DNA of 64,000 nt, from NCBI GenBank assembly GCA_963779615.1, contig CAVZZA010000003.1, positions 64,001 through 128,000 on the forward strand. Direction: 5' to 3'. Position 1 is the stretch's first letter. Each line of letters opens with the position of its first letter. Position numbers and translations under genes: made by a program. The notes below the pieces were generated by a model. That model made no database searches and was not told the origin of the DNA. It saw only the letters and a list, made by a program, of their open reading frames with translations. Positions 39,613 through 60,239 of this stretch are shown piece by piece. The stretch comes from an uncultured Nitrososphaeraceae archaeon. GTDB lineage: Archaea; Thermoproteota; Nitrososphaeria; Nitrososphaerales; Nitrososphaeraceae.

Positions 39613-41601
39613 TTATTCCCCATTTTTCGCTTTGTCGTCTTTATGCTGGTTATCTGAATTAACGTATATCAAATTTATGAGCAATGGGGATAGTGTGGGG
39701 GGAGATGCCCTAATCTTTTTGGTTGCAATGTTATAGTAATGATCGACTAACTCGTTAAAGTGGTGGATCTGTCTGGCCATTAAACTTATGAAAGAAACTG
39801 CGGTTTGGCATTGTGAAGAAAGATCCTGCTTTTGCCTGTTTAATTCACTCGTTTCTCTCTTTGTTTTTTCCAGTGTCTGCTGTTGTTCTTTTATCGATGA
39901 GTTTATGTTCCCCAATTTTCTCAGATTCTCTATAAATGATTTCCAGTGTTCTGCTCTGTTACTGTTGTTGTTACTGTTACTGACATTTACGGCTTTGCTG
40001 CCCTTGTCTGTGCTGCCTTTGCTGCACTCGCCTTGAGGATCCAACTGTAACTTGCCACTTGCGGTTTCTGTCACCAATTGGCTGATGCTTATGATGTCAC
40101 TTTCGCTTATTCCGTTTTGGAAGAGATAATGCAAGGTTGTGCCTACAAATGGTGCTGATTGCATTGCCAGCCTATTGTTGTTCAGCTCTTGCTCTGCCTT
40201 AAAAAGCTCTTTTCTTTTTTCCTTGACTTTGTCTTCCAACAAAAACTTGTCATGGTAGTTTTCCTCAATGTCCCTTATGAACAAGGACACTGCATCTTGT
40301 GATGATAGGAAATCCTTTCTTGTTCCGGCAATTTCCAAAATGGTGTTCCATATCTGTTTTAGCTCTGTTAGTCCAAAATTCATTGCCTGCAGTTGCCCAT
40401 ACACACCCATCGTTTGCCTGTGCATGCTTACCTGAGATTCTAAATGTGAAACCAGGTTTTGCAAAGAACTTTTTTGTTCAAAGAGTTCATTGACCTCTTT
40501 CTGGTTTTCCGTTATTTGCAATTTGAGGGACAGTGAATTTTTATACGCCCTTATTATTTCGGCTGCGTCATAACCCTTCTCCTTAAAGTCATGGATTAGC
40601 TTGGCTAGTTCCTTTATGCCCTCATCCATGTTAATGTCATAGGTATCCCTTAACACTTTTTTTAGGTCTGCAAATATCTGAAGGTAGGTCATGGTGTTTT
40701 TTTCCCTCTTGTTTGTTATGGCAAGATTCTCCTCTGCCTGAGTCCTTTGCAACTCTAGTTCCTTTATTTCCTCCATTGCCTTTTTTCTGTATTCCTCAGC
40801 CTTGGAGTATTCTTTTTTCATTTGGGCAATACACAAAGAAATTCGGGAAACAAACGGCATTTCAGTTTCATCATTTGGATAGGGGGAGGAAGAGGGGGAG
40901 GCTGTTTGTTTTGATTTGGCATCAGGATGGTTTTCCTTTACCTGCGTGAGAGAGTTAAGACCGTCATCATTATCCTCCCGTGAACTGAAACCTGGTGTTT
41001 TGCCTGTTTTCTGGGGTTGCTGATATTGTGGTTGCCGGGTGGTGGTTGTGATGGTGTTATCCAGTCCACTTGCACTTAGCTTCGGTTGGGCATACCTGTT
41101 TCCATCCTTGTCAAAACCATCATCATCGACATCATAGTTGCCGTTTGGGGAAAAGGGTGACTTGTTTTTGTTGTTGGGGGAAGTGCCGTAAAAGTCAAAC
41201 AAGTCTTTAATCCATGCTGGTACGGTTGAGGGTGCAAGACCTTGCCTTTTGCAGTTCTTATAGACGTCCTCTATAAAGGAGGCGAACTCGTCGTAGTTGC
41301 CCTCGTATTTGTTATCGATGCCATCATCATCACCTTCATGTATGTCAAGTCTTTTCAGTATACCTATCATCCTAAAGCCCTGGGCGCATTGCCCAATCGA
41401 TATCTCCGACTTCCTGACCTTGATCGAAAACTCCCTCAGCGTGTCAATGTCGGGTGTCCCGATTTCTCCTTTCCAGTCGTTTATCAAATAATGCACCTTG
41501 CCTTTTGAGACATTGGTTTCTGAGGCTATTTGGTCCATCGATTTGCCGTTTAGGTAGCCTTGTATCACTAGCGATATGCCGGTTTGTTTTGAACTTGACA
41601 T
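39613..41601 (-). CDS. N-terminal HTH + long coiled-coil protein of unknown function
   Basis: 662 aa; YLNGKSMDQIASETNVSKGKVHYLI HTH, disordered linker, several heptad-rich stretches; no Walker A seen. Confidence 0.8.
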   Translation of the reverse strand: MSSSKQTGISLVIQGYLNGKSMDQIASETNVSKGKVHYLINDWKGEIGTPDIDTLREFSIKVRKSEISIGQCAQGFRMIGILKRLDIHEGDDDGIDNKYEGNYDEFASFIEDVYKNCKRQGLAPSTVPAWIKDLFDFYGTSPNNKNKSPFSPNGNYDVDDDGFDKDGNRYAQPKLSASGLDNTITTTTRQPQYQQPQKTGKTPGFSSREDNDDGLNSLTQVKENHPDAKSKQTASPSSSPYPNDETEMPFVSRISLCIAQMKKEYSKAEEYRKKAMEEIKELELQRTQAEENLAITNKREKNTMTYLQIFADLKKVLRDTYDINMDEGIKELAKLIHDFKEKGYDAAEIIRAYKNSLSLKLQITENQKEVNELFEQKSSLQNLVSHLESQVSMHRQTMGVYGQLQAMNFGLTELKQIWNTILEIAGTRKDFLSSQDAVSLFIRDIEENYHDKFLLEDKVKEKRKELFKAEQELNNNRLAMQSAPFVGTTLHYLFQNGISESDIISISQLVTETASGKLQLDPQGECSKGSTDKGSKAVNVSNSNNNSNRAEHWKSFIENLRKLGNINSSIKEQQQTLEKTKRETSELNRQKQDLSSQCQTAVSFISLMARQIHHFNELVDHYYNIATKKIRASPPTLSPLLINLIYVNSDNQHKDDKAKNGE

Positions 41602-41620
41602 TTATGGTATAGATAATATA

Positions 41621-41691
41621 TGGTCAAGTAGTATTTAAATTCGGTCATTTTGATCAATAAAGCGGTCAAAATAGTCAATTATTCGGTCAAA
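41621..41691 (-). repeat. phased TGACC direct-repeat array with 21-bp period around the TATA box
   Basis: GGTCA at 41622, 41643, 41664, 41685; variants GATCA 41652, AGTCA 41673; TATA (TTTAAATA on -) at 41632-41639. Confidence 0.8.
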
Positions 41692-41729
41692 TATAATGGT
41701 GCTTGGGGATGAGGTGATTATGCTCTGTT

Positions 41730-42095
41730 GGGCAGGGGCCAAAAGACGTATTCCATATGCTAAAACAAAAGAAGGTAAAAAAAGAAAACTGCAACATCCA
41801 TGTCTTGATAAAGCATATAATTCCGAGCCCGAAGAGCAAGCAATTGCAAAAAGAGGATATGTACCACATTTACCGTACAGGAGAAAAAAAGGAGAGGTCA
41901 AGAAAGATACGGAAAAGATCATAAATCGCAAAAAACATCCTGCAAGAAGATGGGTTGTGGAGAGAACCAACTCATGGCACAGCAGGTCCAGAAAGCTGTT
42001 CACATGGTATGAAAAGAAAGCAGAGAGATACCTTGGCTTGGTGCAGCTATCATATGGTATCATAATCTACAGAAAGATAGTTTTGGGATAGGCTC
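41730..42095 (+). mobile_element. IS5-family (IS427-like) 3' fragment, same family as 13432-14371
   Basis: CLDKAY, RWVVERTNSWH, right TIR TTTTGGGATAGGCTC at 42081-42095; left part missing. Confidence 0.85.
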
Positions 42096-42119
42096 TTAAT
42101 TTGCTTAACTGTTTTATGT

Positions 42120-43119
42120 GCTTTGTTGCATAACTAGTAATCAAAAGACTATTTCCATTTGTTTATGCCTTTCCCCTAAGCACGTTATACAAATATACTT
42201 TCATTATCATCTCTTTCACCATGTTTTGAAGCTTGGTAGCAGACACATATTCTCCATAGGTTTTCTTCATAGAAGAGAATGCAGTCTCAGCCATCCATCG
42301 CTTCCCATACCTTCTTTTCTTTTTCCATTTGGGTAGATCATCTGTTGTTTGCAATTTGGCCTCTCTGTTCCTTATCTTGTTGTTTTTGGGTGAGATGATG
42401 GAACTCTTACTTACCCTTATTCCTGGCAGAATGTTTTTCTCTTGAAGACACTTGAAATTCTCATTGCCATTATAGGCCCCATCTGCCAGGACTGTTTTGA
42501 TATTGGCAGCGGCGTTATTTTGCTTTAACATGCGGTCAACCAATCCACACAACACTTTTCCATCATGCACCTTTTCATCAGCCACTTCTAAAGCAAGGAT
42601 TTCCTTGGTCTTTATGTTCACTGCAAAATGTATTTTGAGACAGCCTTTCTTTTTTTAACAAACCACTTGTCCCTTAGCCATTGGCCCCTGTTTGTTACCT
42701 TGATGCCAGTGCTATCTACTGCTATGATAACATCATCATCATCCAATTCACTACTGCTTCTACCACTATCAATGTCAAGGTTGTTTTTCCTTCTGTTGAT
42801 TTGTGAATAGCTGGGATGGCTTGGCAGGTTCTTTCCCGTTGTTGCCTTTATGATCCCTTCTGTTTGCCTATAAGGCAGGTGAAAGTAAACCCTGATGCAA
42901 CCAATAAAAAGAATAAGGGAATTTGGATACCTGTACTTTCTGCCTCCCTTCTTTTCATCCATCTCTTCAACCTCGGTATCACGCCATAAATCCAGAAAGT
43001 CACAGGCAAATAGAATCTCTCCCCTCTTCTTACCATGGACCGGTTATAGGAAGGCCAGTCAGTCAATAATGTTAGTCTAATTTAATCCCAGCTAAATAGA
43101 TTGAGTCATGCAACAAAGC
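42120..43119 (-). mobile_element. IS5-family (IS903 group) element, frameshifted transposase
   Basis: 16-bp TIR GCTTTGTTGCAT(A/G)ACT; DWPSYN.S.VRRGE, PYRQTEG, AVDSTGIK, VHDGK, LADGAY, RWMAETAFS. Confidence 0.9.
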
Positions 43120-55805: not shown

Positions 55806-57194
55806 TTGCGCAGAACAAAAAATATTGAATCTGCATTTGAAATTAAGCATAGAACTAAGTATTTGTTCTACGGATTTATTATTGCTATAGCTGTAGCTAT
55901 CTTGTTTATACATATAATGCTATTTATTAGTGGCGATGAAAGATACATAGGCACAACCTCAGCAGTTTTGTTGGGATCATCTACCGGCATAGCCTTGTTT
56001 ATAATACTTTCAAATCCCAAAAATATAGAAGTTCAGAAATTTAAGCTCGTTTTCTTAGGAGTAGGTCTCTGGTTCTTTGGTGAATTTTCCTACACTTATT
56101 ATCAAATTCTATTAGGTACGGAAGCTCCATACCCAGGCGTCGGGGAAATTTTCTATGTTGCAGGCTATGTACCCCTAATTCTATTTACCTACAGATCATT
56201 TAAGTCTATAAACAGAAACGGAATAATAAAACGTAGGATGATTGCGTTTGTAGTAACATTGGCATCTGTATTGCCTGTAATATCAACTGTTCAAATTTTT
56301 AGCCAGGAAGTAGATTTGCAATCTCAATGGCTTGATATTCTGATTAGTACCATAACTAACTATGGCGATATTGTTTTATTATCTTTTTCGATACTCATTC
56401 TAACGAAGTTACCTAGAAGTAACCCATATATCTATCACTGGATATTATTTACCACTTTCCTGATACTAGCAACCATTACGGATCTCATCTACCTGACCGC
56501 AGCAATCGTTGATGAAGAATTTCTTTCACAAACTGAATTGATATGGGAAGCGTTGTGGGCGTTCGCCTATTTATGCATTCTTGCATCATTAATTTGGTAT
56601 TTCAAACTTATTCATATATTAAGCGAAAACTCTGCACAGTACTACAGTCGATTACTGAAAACGTCAGAATATGCAACCAAATATGAGAACAATGTTTCGG
56701 TCAAAGATAAAGATAAGATTCTCGAAGAGGATCAACTACATACAGAAAAAATACAAGATTTCAAATTGGTCGAGAATCGCATTGATGAAATAATAAAAGG
56801 TGCAAAAGACGAGATCGCTATTTTATTTTGTAATTCAAGTACTTTGAAAATAAACGAAACCCAAAGTATCCTAAGATTTTTGAAGGAAAAAACAAGGTCA
56901 GATATTCTAAAAAGAATTCTTTTTCCGTTGGGTGTAGAGGGTAGAATTATTAACAGTTATAGCGAGATCGCTAACGTACGGATCTTTGAAAAAAAAATGG
57001 AGAATAATAGTATTATCATAGTGTCTGACTTTACTAAGGTGCTAGTAGCTTCGACTACAGATCCTATCGATCCTGATAAGGAAACAGCGTATTTTGTATC
57101 ATATACTGACAACGAAAATATAGCCTATGCATACATAACAACATTCGAAAAATTATGGGTACTTCAGACCGTAACGAAATTGGATGTAGGATAA
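55806..57194 (+). CDS. multi-TM sensor-like protein with cytoplasmic TrmB/PLD-like domain, no kinase
   Basis: ~8 TM with LWFFGE..Y.YY....APYP...EIFY; C-terminus GAKDEI...YITTFEKLW resembles repeats of the 45495 kinase. Confidence 0.7.
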   Translation: MRRTKNIESAFEIKHRTKYLFYGFIIAIAVAILFIHIMLFISGDERYIGTTSAVLLGSSTGIALFIILSNPKNIEVQKFKLVFLGVGLWFFGEFSYTYYQILLGTEAPYPGVGEIFYVAGYVPLILFTYRSFKSINRNGIIKRRMIAFVVTLASVLPVISTVQIFSQEVDLQSQWLDILISTITNYGDIVLLSFSILILTKLPRSNPYIYHWILFTTFLILATITDLIYLTAAIVDEEFLSQTELIWEALWAFAYLCILASLIWYFKLIHILSENSAQYYSRLLKTSEYATKYENNVSVKDKDKILEEDQLHTEKIQDFKLVENRIDEIIKGAKDEIAILFCNSSTLKINETQSILRFLKEKTRSDILKRILFPLGVEGRIINSYSEIANVRIFEKKMENNSIIIVSDFTKVLVASTTDPIDPDKETAYFVSYTDNENIAYAYITTFEKLWVLQTVTKLDVG

Positions 57195-57492
57195 AATCTT
57201 TCACTACCTAAATATTAACTATCATCCCATTCCCTCTTTGGAGAAAATTATTGGTCTCGTCCATGATAGAATCATTCCATCTAAATATTTCCTGTCTTAT
57301 GACAGATGTTGAGAATCTTGTATATAAAACTAAATCGCAAACCCGTATAGGGATGAATATGTCAATCTCACAAATTGAAGACTTTTGCAAATATCAGAAT
57401 TTAATTATCTTGTTCTGCTTTACAAGTTCCTAAATATCTAAATAGAAACTGAAATTTTTTAAATATGCATCATTCGTAATATACTGCAACGT

Positions 57493-58006
57493 ATGAATGC
57501 TTAGATTGTATTGCCACAAAACTGGATATAAGAGAATTTAGTACAAAGAATGTCCCCTCAGATGTAATATCTACAATTCTCAATTATGCCAGATATAGTG
57601 GTAGTGGTCTAAATACTCAACATTGGAGATTCGTAGCAATAAAGACAAAAATAACCTAAAAAAATTGTCTGAAGATAGTACAAGTGGACAATGGATAGTT
57701 GGAGCAAGTTTTGCTATTATATTATTAACAGATCCAAATTATGGCTTTCATCTACTGGATGCAGGAAGAGTTATACAAAATATGCAACTATCTGCATGGG
57801 ATAATGGTGTCGGTTCCGGATTATATGCTGGTATGAGAGATGAGAAAATGAGAAGCGATTTTAAAATCCCATCGAATCTAAACATCTCGTCTGTGGTGGG
57901 TTTTGGATTTCCTAAAAATTCCATTACAGGAAGGGGGAAAAATCGTAAAGCATTGAACGAATTGGCTTACGATGAAGTCAAGGGGAATTCTGATAATGCA
58001 ACTTAG
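57493..58006 (+). pseudogene. nitroreductase family protein, two frameshifts
   Basis: LDCIATKLDIREF...ARYSGSGLNTQHWRF then shifted LDAGRVIQNMQLSAWDNGVGS...GFGFP. Confidence 0.82.
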
Positions 58007-58128
58007 TCAATTATTATTAATTTTTAGAGGACAGATGAATACCCCTATAGAGTTTTGACTATTCCTCATTCTGCTTTTCTTTAACCATTATAAAAAACAC
58101 TTTCAAGGATATGAGTCCATGTAATCAA

Positions 58129-58149
58129 TGGGCCCAAGGGGGTTCGAAC
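58129..58149 (-). other. isolated tRNA 3'-end fragment (acceptor TGGGCCC-A, Ile-like), att-like remnant
   Basis: Minus strand G-TTCGAAC-CCCCT-TGGGCCC-A; no 5' half; same core at 53207-53220 and, with mismatches, 16522-16535. Confidence 0.65.
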
Positions 58150-58301
58150 TAAAAATAATGTCTTTTGGTCTGGGGGATGTTTAAACAACTAAAATGTTGG
58201 AGCTTCCAGTCGGGTGACGTCAATGCTTCTTATATACAAACAAACATCTTTTCCCCAAAATATACTCCTAAACTAGCATCCAAAATACACATACAATGTG
58301 A

Positions 58302-58361
58302 TTTGACCATTTTTTGACCATTTTTTGACCAATTTGACCAAAAAATAATAACTATGACCAA
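58302..58361 (+). repeat. phased TGACCA direct-repeat array upstream of HTH-coiled-coil paralogue
   Basis: TGACC at 58304, 58315, 58326, 58335, 58355; TATTATAAA at 58372-58380. Confidence 0.8.
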
Positions 58362-58409
58362 ATTTTAATGATATTATAAACCATCCATACAACAATAAAC
58401 TATGCAAAA

Positions 58410-60239
58410 TTGAGACATTCAAAACAATTATTGGAATCACAGGTTGTTTCGGATTATTTAAAAGCAAAACCGAGGAACAAAATAGCTGTAGATAATAAAA
58501 CATCTGCAGGAAACGTATCAAACATATTAAAGGATTGGAAAAAAGAATAGGAATACCCAATGTTGAAGAACTGAGAGAATTTGTTGCAGCAGTCAAAAAA
58601 TCCGGTATAACAATTGAACAATGTGTCTAAGGTTTTTAGGGTTGCCCAAATGATGAAAAGATTGGGCATCCCCGTTGATGGCGATGATGATGACAACTGT
58701 AATGACGATAGCCAAAATAACAACAAAGATTTCTATTTCTTTGTAGATGAGATATACTTAAATTGCAAAAATCTAGGCATTCCACCAGATACCATACCTT
58801 CATGGATTAAAGATCTGCTGGATTGTTATAATCTTGACAATACAAACCAACAATCCCTTTCACGGAGTTTAGGTGAGCATGATGATAATTATAATGATGA
58901 TAAAAAAGATCCTTCACTGTTAACCCTAAAAGAGCAGGAATTTTTTACGGGTGGGAACAACAGATCAGGTTCAATCGGAATCAGGAAAACAGATTCCTTC
59001 AATAAAGATTCATCCAATCATTTTGAAACCCATCAATCGGCATCATCGCCTAATAATGTTGAAATACCATTCATCTCCCGGGCATCCAATTTCATTGCAA
59101 CAAAGAAAAAACTATGCGTAAAACTTTATAGATATAAACTGGCCTTAGCAGACGAAGTAAAAGGATTAAAATTACAAAAAGGCAAAGGCAACAGACAATC
59201 TTAATAGCATAATTAAAGAGAAAGTCATGTAATATACTTTATCGAATGGTTTTACAAATTAAAAGAAAAGCTCTGGAACGGGTATTCCATAAGAATAGAA
59301 GATATTGACAGTTTTGCCAAAGTTATTAATGATTTTAAAAACCATAGATATGATGCCTATGAAATCATAAAAGAATACAGCGGTGTGCAATCGGTTAGGG
59401 AAGAAGTGATAATAAAAGGAGGAAGGTTAAACTATCTTCAATGGGAAGAGCAAAAGCTAAATGACAAGATAGCAGCTTTGAGACCTCAACTTGACTATCA
59501 AGCACAGATTGTGAATACATATTCAGAATTGGCGGAAATGAACCTTGGGCTCAAAGAGTTAAAACTACTAATGTCAACCATTACCGAAATAGCACAGGCC
59601 AATAACATCGCCTATGACAAAGCGGTTAGTAAATTCTTTATGGATACTGAAGAACAGTATGATAAAAAACTGGGGTTAGAAAACAAAATAAGTGAAAAAG
59701 TACTGGAGCTTGGGAACATAAATAACAATATCTCAAATTCTCAATTTAGATTGCTATTTTATTCCTCGATAGTGCCAATGTTGACTAATCTTTTCCAAAA
59801 TGGGTTAACTGAAGAAGACATTGTAAATATTAATTCAATATGTTTATCGAATGTTAATAAAATTAAAGTCAATTCAAAAGCGGAAAATAAACAAGACACG
59901 AACAAAACAGAATGCTGGAGGCTATTGAAAGAAGATTTAAAAAAATATGGAGAAATCAGCTTGGCAGCAAGAGAAAAATCAAAGGAAGTTGAAGAAATGG
60001 ATAAAGAAATCCATAATTTAAACAAACAAAAACAGGAGCTCACAAATTATTGCAAAAATGCAAATTCCATTATAAATAATTTAAACAGCAAAATTTCATA
60101 TCTTAATGGATCTATCGATTATCTTGGAAATGAGTTGAGCAATAAAATTAAGGCATTTCCAAGACCCCCACCATTGTTTATTTATTTTATGCATAACAAT
60201 ACAGAAAAATGGGGGGATGGAAAGAATGAAGAAATTTAA
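58410..60239 (+). pseudogene. decayed paralogue of the 39613..41601 HTH-coiled-coil protein
   Basis: LRHSKQ...DYLKAKPRNKIAVDNKTSAGNVSNILKDWK, ELREF, IPSWIKDL, EIPFISR, MNLGLKELK, LFQNGLTEEDI align in order across several frameshifts/stops. Confidence 0.85.

Follow-up and report, generated by a model that had tools for sequence, protein, structure and literature searches.

The stretch of DNA analysed here, called the window throughout, comprises 64,000 nucleotides (nt; G000:C3:64001-128000) of the genome of an uncultured Nitrososphaeraceae archaeon (G000; 3.17 Mb, 36% G+C). Towards its end a copy of a tRNA 3' end is followed by a row of TGACC repeats, a TATA-like box and the remains of a gene for a protein with an N-terminal helix-turn-helix (HTH) head and a coiled-coil tail. 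An intact relative of that gene, P0001, lies elsewhere in the window behind an array of its own and served as the reference member of the protein family. The features are as follows, in window coordinates.

58051..58128, minus strand: flank native to the downstream side of tRNA-Met, forming the chromosomal part of an attR-like junction, recognised by similarity to relatives
58129..58149, minus strand: core scar of an attachment (att) site, a 21-nt copy of the 3' end of tRNA-Met(CAT) with 20/21 identity
58304..58359, plus strand: direct array of five TGACCA repeats, starting at 58304, 58315, 58326, 58335 and 58355
58372-58380, plus strand: TATA-like box TATTATAAA, read from the sequence, 30-38 nt upstream of the TTG start
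58410..60239, plus strand: pseudogene of the HTH-coiled-coil family, found by tblastn and profile hidden Markov model (HMM)
39613..41601, minus strand: intact paralogue P0001, an open reading frame (ORF) of 662 amino acids (aa)
41622..41690, minus strand: operator-type array of P0001, with TGACC at -88, -67, -46 and -25 and TTGACT at -76

Array and pseudogene of the window

All five TGACC motifs reported by the first-pass annotation of this DNA are present at the positions listed above, four of them as TTGACC and the fifth as ATGACC, and the TATA-like box is found at 58372 as had been described. Relative to the gene the repeats also point the same way as those at 41.6 kb, another point on which that annotation was borne out. 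The array starts at a distance of 154 nt from the att core. Its repeats are spaced 11-11-9-20, compared with the canonical 12-9-12-9 of relatives, and the site expected near -64 is missing; the array reads as a drifted or decayed form of the five-site operator of the family. In soil metagenome contigs, where the locus is present at 90–99% identity, the array is polymorphic in length, with a 31-nt skip from 58323 to 58355 and deletions of 3 nt and 6 nt.

The frame opening at TTG 58410, taken earlier for a decayed paralogue of the 662-aa protein, is just that: it aligns with P0001 at 28% identity over 654 columns (tblastn, E 9e-61). The pseudogene falls into four pieces (58380-58547, 58499-58627, 58611-59201 and 59217-60236), which occupy two frames with two frame changes and match, in order, positions 2-46, 40-72, 73-256 and 268-617 of the profile HMM. 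Several in-frame stops are present, and stops separate the last two pieces. The window copy is a true pseudogene, inactivated by two frameshifts and several stops. Programmed frameshifting was ruled out for the split copies of the family, as their breaks lie at differing profile positions. None of the runs recorded as RNA contained more than 8% of the sampled words; one contig from an RNA library covers 58422-58604, which cannot demonstrate transcription.

Upstream of P0001 there is a TATA-like box at about -38, and one repeat site lies between this box and the start codon. Fragments of transposases of the IS5/IS4 type of insertion sequence (IS), with matches to DDE_Tnp_1_2, DDE_Tnp_1 and DDE_Tnp_1_5 (window 41696-42962), directly adjoin the P0001 array.

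Pairing of array and gene

Further copies were searched for a shared motif, and it was found throughout. Each copy detected in G000 by tblastn (7/7) has a same-strand TGAC[C/G/T] cluster no more than about 110 nt from its start; in the seventh, a short relative, the array is inverted. When one genome per species was scanned, 29 related loci came up, four of which (L006, L012, L014 and L020) have no gene start and were left unassessed. All 25 others carry a same-strand TGAC[C/G/T] array just upstream of a TATA-like box. Arrays are present at 31/31 assessed family loci, nearly all of which have neither an att site nor an integrase.

Site statistics were compiled for 24 non-redundant loci after exclusion of six near-duplicates and the outsized array of L028. 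Within 200 nt upstream of these genes TGAC[CGT] occurs 129 times in the forward and 4 times in the reverse orientation, the genome-wide expectation being 0.40 per strand per locus. Neighbouring sites are most often 12 nt (41 cases) or 9 nt (39 cases) apart, followed by 21 nt (8 cases) and other distances (9 cases). The canonical array consists of five sites spaced 12-9-12-9, the last at about -55 from the start codon, and site positions recur from locus to locus (e.g. -97/-85/-76/-64/-55). A/T-rich, TATA-like boxes follow at about -33 to -40 in many relatives, and one clade has an extra site at -20 to -28, between the box and the start codon. Given the 21-bp period, all sites would lie roughly on one face of the helix. 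In G000 as a whole, clusters of at least four same-strand TGAC[CGT] number 32, where five shuffles yielded 2-3 apiece.

The repeat's fifth base tracks the recognition helix of the adjacent gene's HTH. Genes with the helix SKGKVHYL have TGACC arrays at 12/12 loci, and TGACG is the commonest form at 11/12 loci where the helix reads S-x-G-x-x-S-N/S. The helix SAGAVTN goes with TGAC[G/T] (L025, L029, L023 and L026) and SDGAVTN with TGAC[C/T] (L031 and L032). Such co-divergence of protein and upstream sites is what cognate binding predicts, and it is no proof of it. The row of TGAC motifs upstream of each member is most likely its own control site.

The protein family

Members of the family are about 550-680 aa long and are all annotated as hypothetical. 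In P0001 the N-terminal HTH is followed by two helical pairs (52-84 and 103-139), an acidic linker, a disordered linker of about 100 aa and some 400 aa of long helices. A low-confidence full-length model places the latter at 250-321, 346-406 and 545-627, i.e. helices of 60-83 residues. A separate model of the N-terminal part has a pLDDT (a per-residue confidence score) of 86-94 over residues 11-60, the HTH spanning 8-47.

Among 18 members searched against Pfam, HTH_23 and HTH_28 each match five (best E 2e-6), GerE weakly matches three (best E 0.002) and Sigma70_r4_2 weakly matches five. For P0001 the only entries at E ≤1 are Nuf2_DHR10-like, Sigma70_r4_2, HTH_28 and DUF3533, all below gathering cut-offs. 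Superposition of residues 6-63 with LuxR/NarL/GerE-type domains by VIA-align gave Z scores of 6-7.2, in a range common for helical models, with a root-mean-square deviation of 2.6-3.3 Å over 57-59 residues. A Foldseek search of the N-terminal model against the Protein Data Bank (PDB) returned nothing at E ≤1e-3, and a PDB profile search with the whole family at E ≤1 produced only a chance-level match to GldL (E 0.62). No usable match to the tail was found in the ESM Atlas. Prediction of a homodimer for residues 245-630 scored 0.02, which is evidence neither way. The Pfam and PDB profile searches detected no Rep, primase or helicase domain in the protein, and neither the 18 members nor 10 more representatives of the superfamily described below showed a DDE domain. 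A C-terminal membrane anchor, suggested by the label ‘YhcB’ in one source, was dropped as a candidate: the hydrophobic stretch has about 14 residues and lies in a low-confidence, non-helical C-terminal tail.

By profile similarity the N-terminal domain defines a large unnamed superfamily. Its profile matches 2033 cluster representatives at E ≤1e-3, 976 at E ≤1e-10 and 231 at E ≤1e-30, and lengths range from 111 to 702 aa among the 150 representatives listed. Ten clusters were looked up; the names given were ‘hypothetical protein’ and, once, ‘transposase’, the protein so named having no DDE domain.

Copy number, duplication and short paralogues

Five relatives have 6-17 profile matches per genome. 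Paralogues within one genome share only about 260-375 nt of upstream DNA and the gene, their flanks being unrelated. Thus L021 and L024 are 95% identical over 1.9 kb within unrelated flanks, and the corresponding value for L018 and L030 is 84%. L025 and L029, which are 87% identical, stand in differing gene neighbourhoods in two metagenome-assembled genomes. No conserved neighbouring gene emerged from the 103 and 149 flanking ORFs scanned. DDE transposase genes occur within a few kb at 6/24 related loci. An ORF with a TIR domain lies divergently upstream of two duplicated copies (L030:9018-9551 and L033:9018-9551), one of which also has an NB-ARC/TPR ORF nearby (L033:5506-7302).

Short paralogues consisting of the N-terminal part only (82-277 aa) lie about 100 nt from perfect tandem TGACC arrays with units of 11-12 bp (4, 11 and 25 units). 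These arrays are oriented opposite to those of the long family, and the flanks of two of them are mutually homologous. The regions concerned are the following.

C3:827413-828107 (L035:10111-10808): short paralogue and array; tandem array at C3:827413-827877, inverted orientation
C5:126999-127608: short paralogue and array; tandem array at C5:127360-127608, inverted orientation
C3:194252-195219 (L041:8250-9220): short paralogue and array; tandem array at C3:194252-195085, inverted orientation

A long array is also found before an intact 595-aa member of the full-length family (L028:9780-9950). It is built of (TGACggtTGACggttatgt) units; 22 TGAC were counted in the 260 nt read upstream, within which the array is not fully bounded.

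The tRNA-Met scar

The tRNA 3'-end fragment noticed at 58129-58149, for which no strand had been given, agrees, when read on the minus strand, at 20 of 21 positions with the final 21 nt of the tRNA-Met(CAT) gene (G000:C3:264819-264892). ARAGORN called no tRNA gene in the window. Similarity does not stop at the 21-mer: the adjoining 78-96 nt (58128 down to about 58051, minus strand) match the 3' flanks of intact tRNA-Met(CAT) genes in five relatives (G002, G004, G003, G001 and G017; loci L050, L051, L054, L056 and L058) at 77–88% identity. Since relatives have this flank next to the tRNA gene, the DNA to the left of 58129 is the ancestral downstream flank of tRNA-Met. Array and pseudogene are on the other, variable side of the junction. 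The 21-mer is thus supported as a genuine att-type scar of tRNA-Met, with a native flank on one side and, on the other, variable DNA that includes the module. The closest relative, G002 (C34), has the same core, flank and nitroreductase junction; beyond the core its DNA is unrelated and contains no family gene.

Other traces show that tRNA-Met is a real and reused integration site. G000 has further tRNA-Met fragments at C3:251161, 820485 and 827265, the intact gene being 142.7 kb from the window scar, and G004 has the tRNA-Met gene and two fragments inside 38 kb, in the manner of tandem scars of the same site. The fragments in L052, L053, L055, L057, L062 and L063 are preceded by a common sequence, GGACTCGTAATATATCTATTAC, around position 400-490 of each, which probably represents the end of a family of integrative elements reusing the site. 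A second type of end precedes the fragments in L059, L061 and L064 and that at C3:251161 of G000.

Two observations concern other repeats. ARAGORN, run with introns allowed, reported a 444-nt ‘tRNA-Pro’ at G000:C5:223860-224303, which is probably a spurious hit on a dispersed repeat of some 330 nt with at least 12 partial copies (e.g. C5:428831-429169 and C4:277068-277253). In the window, a stretch of about 150 nt at 57193-57341 is kept at 76–82% in many relatives, with several copies per genome, and has no Rfam match; an Rfam search of 56800-58500 gave two sub-threshold chance matches and nothing else.

Relation to integrative elements

The first-pass annotation had taken the module for an independent replicate of a cis/trans pairing that ties the family to tRNA-targeting integrative elements. 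The pairing itself stands, in the copies of G000 (7/7), at the related loci (25/25) and in the co-variation of helix and repeat; the tie to elements was not upheld. A survey of adjacency to tRNA genes, tRNA fragments and integrases gave no significant enrichment. No integrase or element hallmark gene was found among the 52 ORFs of the window or the 14 ORFs of the next 18 kb. Each of the three PF00589 matches in G000 adjoins another tRNA gene, and the nearest is about 78 kb from any long copy. At E ≤1e-6 none of 149 neighbouring ORFs at 24 related loci is an integrase (six ORFs of L011, a locus syntenic with L013, having been dropped from the count), and tblastn of the three G000 integrases against the related loci retrieved just one fragment, of 43 aa, from L027. 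Of the 29 loci, one has a tRNA gene within 10 kb. Randomisation gave P = 0.068 for the G000 modules that have a tRNA gene or fragment no more than 500 nt away (2/10) and P = 0.12 for those with one within 3 kb (3/10). None of 10 tRNA-Met scars in relatives has a family ORF or array within about 400 nt, no relatives appeared in a scan of viral contigs with the full-length family alignment, and for the window scar neither a second att site nor an intact tRNA bounding an element of plausible size was found.

Three cases favour a link. At L010 a 22-nt 3' fragment of tRNA-Ser lies 430 nt upstream of the gene; the tRNA-Met scar at C3:827265 has, at a distance of 126 nt, a short paralogue with an 11-unit TGACCACCATT array; and tRNA-Ser fragments lie near the copy on contig C5 of G000, 2.1 kb from the edge of the module and about 2.3 kb from the start of the gene. 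An ORF 8.2 kb from the C5 copy matches Phage_integr_3 at the cut-off. The possibility that this copy resides inside an element was rejected; it lies beyond an attR-type tRNA-Ser junction, in apparent native flank. The topology of the modules is inconsistent, being on the element side at the window and on the flank side at the C5 copy and L010. In G015 and G007 a short member lies 2.5-2.6 kb from an integrase; this further candidate was discarded because the member is on the opposite (5') side of the targeted tRNA-Lys. The two regions (L065:6981-10793 and L066:6831-10701) are syntenic and count as one event, with the integrase directly 3' of tRNA-Lys and the short member about 2 kb 5' of it. 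In G000 a 4-unit TGACCACCATT array lies 130 nt behind a tRNA-Lys (C1:526901-526995).

The link of the family to tRNA-targeting elements is therefore weak. We read the modules as accumulating in variable DNA around integration hot spots with no functional tie, and the att scar and the array of the window as separate features.

An autoregulated module and its alternatives

The reading that we favour is that the locus is probably the dead copy of a self-contained, autoregulated module, in which a protein with HTH head and coiled-coil tail is paired with direct repeats that serve as operator at the promoter of its own gene. It builds on the observed anatomy and its conservation, the rules of orientation and spacing, and the co-variation of helix and repeat, from which we infer DNA binding, oligomerisation and the sign of regulation. 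A live module would consist of a promoter, typically with five TGAC[C/G/T] sites spaced 12-9-12-9 next to a TATA-like box, and the HTH-coiled-coil gene. In the predicted protein a four-helix HTH head at the N terminus is joined by two small helical units and long disordered linkers to an alpha-helical tail of about 400 aa. The HTH would bind the repeats upstream of its own gene, and oligomerisation of the tail would make binding along the array cooperative. Occupancy next to and after the TATA box may then set the transcription of the gene itself, as for plasmid KfrA. Because the window module is 154 nt from the scar on the variable, non-native side, it sits in DNA that either came in or was rearranged at a hot spot of tRNA integration.

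Several observations weigh against this reading. The sole exception to TGACG among the S-x-G-x-x-S-N/S helices is the window pseudogene itself, in which an SAGNVSN helix is combined with TGACCA repeats, and the helix classes coincide with clades, so that shared ancestry could yield part of the co-variation. The full-length model on which the tail is drawn has a mean pLDDT of 57. Only one of the seven tblastn copies in G000 is an uninterrupted full-length ORF, a state more in keeping with a family that is decaying or selfish than with a housekeeping regulator; single frameshifts in broken copies may be assembly errors. Four orphan arrays exist in G000 (C1:321769-321841, C5:805726-805756, C3:966239-966269 on the minus strand and C3:901620-901663), which have the canonical 12/9 spacing and, in one case, a TATA-like box with a site after it, and for which no family ORF was found within 1.5 kb downstream. 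Some arrays also exceed what a simple operator needs, with at least 16 sites in 200 nt at L028 and 11-25 tandem units beside short paralogues. Taken together, the orphan and very long arrays, the high copy number, the frequent decay and the homology limited to the module suggest something beyond simple regulation.

One such function would be that of a centromere or tether, for which ParR/parC, TubR/tubC, RacA/ram and the accessory part that KfrA plays in partition are precedents. The coiled-coil protein would build a nucleoprotein complex on its private arrays to position, pair or anchor DNA, and autoregulation would be a by-product. The long and orphan arrays just described would find a use here, as would the tail of about 400 aa and the placing of all sites on one helical face with a 21-bp period; for KfrA, operator binding is required for plasmid maintenance (PMC7783346). 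Nevertheless, the modules are chromosomal and multi-copy, no conserved neighbour of ParA or TubZ type was found (a ParB-like ORF occurs near 1/24 loci), and the tight register of the arrays with TATA box and start codon suits a promoter operator rather than a centromere. We consider this explanation unlikely.

Alternatively, the array and gene may form a unit of about 2.1 kb that is itself selfish, mobile or in fast turnover, the window pseudogene then being a dead insertion; regulation within the unit might be the same as in the module that we favour. Homology between paralogues does end sharply at the 5' edges of the module within unrelated flanks (L021/L024, L018/L030 and L025/L029), copies are numerous and many are broken, and transposase genes or IS fragments lie near 6/24 loci and abut P0001, respectively. 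IS elements are common in these genomes anyway, however, and some of the broken copies come from assemblies whose error profile cannot be judged. Terminal inverted repeats, target duplications and a catalytic domain were looked for and not found, and no pair of empty and filled sites was recovered. We consider a selfish unit unlikely.

A broader and rather tentative picture, which we also regard as unlikely, is that Nitrososphaeraceae genomes contain a large and hitherto undescribed class of autonomous modules of array and gene. Each would pair a coiled-coil, possibly filament-forming, DNA-binding protein with a private, specificity-matched, centromere-like array, in units of about 2 kb that duplicate, move and die. 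These would serve DNA positioning or tethering, or be selfish, rather than act as simple regulators, and would be an independently arisen counterpart of plasmid KfrA systems on archaeal chromosomes.

The layout also recalls that of an integrated plasmid. In the classic iteron/rep arrangement direct repeats with a period of about 21 bp immediately precede the gene for the presumed binder, and the module resembles it; the repeats would be iterons, the protein an initiator and the tRNA scar the mark of an integrated replicon. Three copies (that of the window, L010 and the C5 copy) do lie near tRNA fragments, and Krupovic et al. (2019, PMC6563490) raise the possibility that winged-HTH proteins act as initiators in small cryptic elements of Thaumarchaeota. 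Yet no Rep, primase or helicase domain was detected in the protein or its conserved neighbours, a chromosome would hardly tolerate an active origin in many copies, the register of the array is with the promoter and not with an A/T-rich unwinding element, and the scan of viral contigs gave no relatives. We consider an initiator role quite improbable.

That the TGACC array comprises integrase arm-type or recombination directionality factor sites, and so belonged to the att region of whichever element produced the tRNA-Met scar, is an option raised by the first-pass annotation that is scarcely credible. In its favour are the 154 nt between core and array in the window, the 11-unit array at the C3:827265 scar and the 4-unit array behind tRNA-Lys. 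Against it, the arrays follow the gene and not the att site: they are present at 31/31 assessed family loci, nearly all of them lacking att site and integrase, and their register with TATA box and start codon is fixed with or without an att site. The arrays also co-vary with the adjacent HTH, none of 10 tRNA-Met scars in relatives has an array or family ORF within about 400 nt, and the same junction in G002 is followed by unrelated DNA.

Significance and comparison with known systems

The window locus, as a dead copy, is of minor interest; the family is the interesting part. Transcription factors with defined operators are scarce in ammonia-oxidising archaea, and here sequence alone yields a protein family, its probable binding sites, a 12/9 spacing rule, a 21-bp period and apparent determinants of specificity (a recognition helix with HY for TGACC and with SN for TGACG). 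No paper combining Nitrosocosmicus with coiled-coil and helix-turn-helix, or Nitrososphaera with KfrA, was returned by full-text searching.

As in the tRNA-targeting thaumarchaeal elements surveyed by Krupovic et al. (2019, PMC6563490), the window has an att duplicate of a tRNA 3' end and a native flank; unlike in them, no integrase, second att site at a plausible distance or hallmark gene was found beside the module. Neither ‘coiled’ nor ‘Nitrosocosmicus’ occurs in the passages of that survey that were considered. The N-terminal fold may resemble that of LuxR/NarL/GerE-type regulators, on which the model superposes over residues 6-63 at Z scores common for helical models; the HTH of the family is at the N terminus and is not accompanied by a receiver or ligand domain. 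Iteron/Rep, ParR-parC and TubR-tubC systems likewise have helically phased repeats directly upstream of the gene for the presumed binder, whereas in the family no Rep fold or partition NTPase partner was detected and the modules are chromosomal and multi-copy.

Coiled-coil rods with a DNA-binding head are found in TlpA, an autorepressor from the Salmonella virulence plasmid, and in RacA, a DNA tether of Bacillus subtilis with many dispersed binding sites. These two proteins recognise inverted or GC-rich motifs and not promoter-linked direct-repeat arrays, and the PDB profile search (E ≤1) gave no sign of sequence kinship with the family.

The closest likeness is to KfrA of plasmid RA3, which is described as an autorepressor with an HTH head and a long alpha-helical tail that acts on five 9-bp direct repeats overlapping its promoter (PMC7783346). 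The number and orientation of the repeats matter, and KfrA has an accessory role in plasmid maintenance (PMC7783346; see also PMC7821693). The family, too, has an N-terminal HTH head, a long alpha-helical tail (in a low-confidence model) and about five short direct repeats at its own predicted promoter. The differences are considerable. There is no sequence match, KfrA being neither among the four Pfam families on P0001 nor among 25 of the 26 families listed for 18 members (E ≤0.1). The family protein is about twice as long, with disordered linkers of about 100 aa, and its sites are cores of 5-6 bp in 12/9 alternation where those of KfrA are contiguous 9-bp repeats. KfrA belongs to IncP-1/IncU plasmids, whereas the family is archaeal, chromosomal and multi-copy, and no KfrC, IncC, KorB or ParA/ParB partners are among its conserved neighbours. 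By analogy, the family is best regarded as an undescribed archaeal analogue of KfrA-type coiled-coil DNA-binding proteins, putatively autoregulated; should its tails form filaments or its arrays tether DNA, it would be the first KfrA-like system in Archaea.

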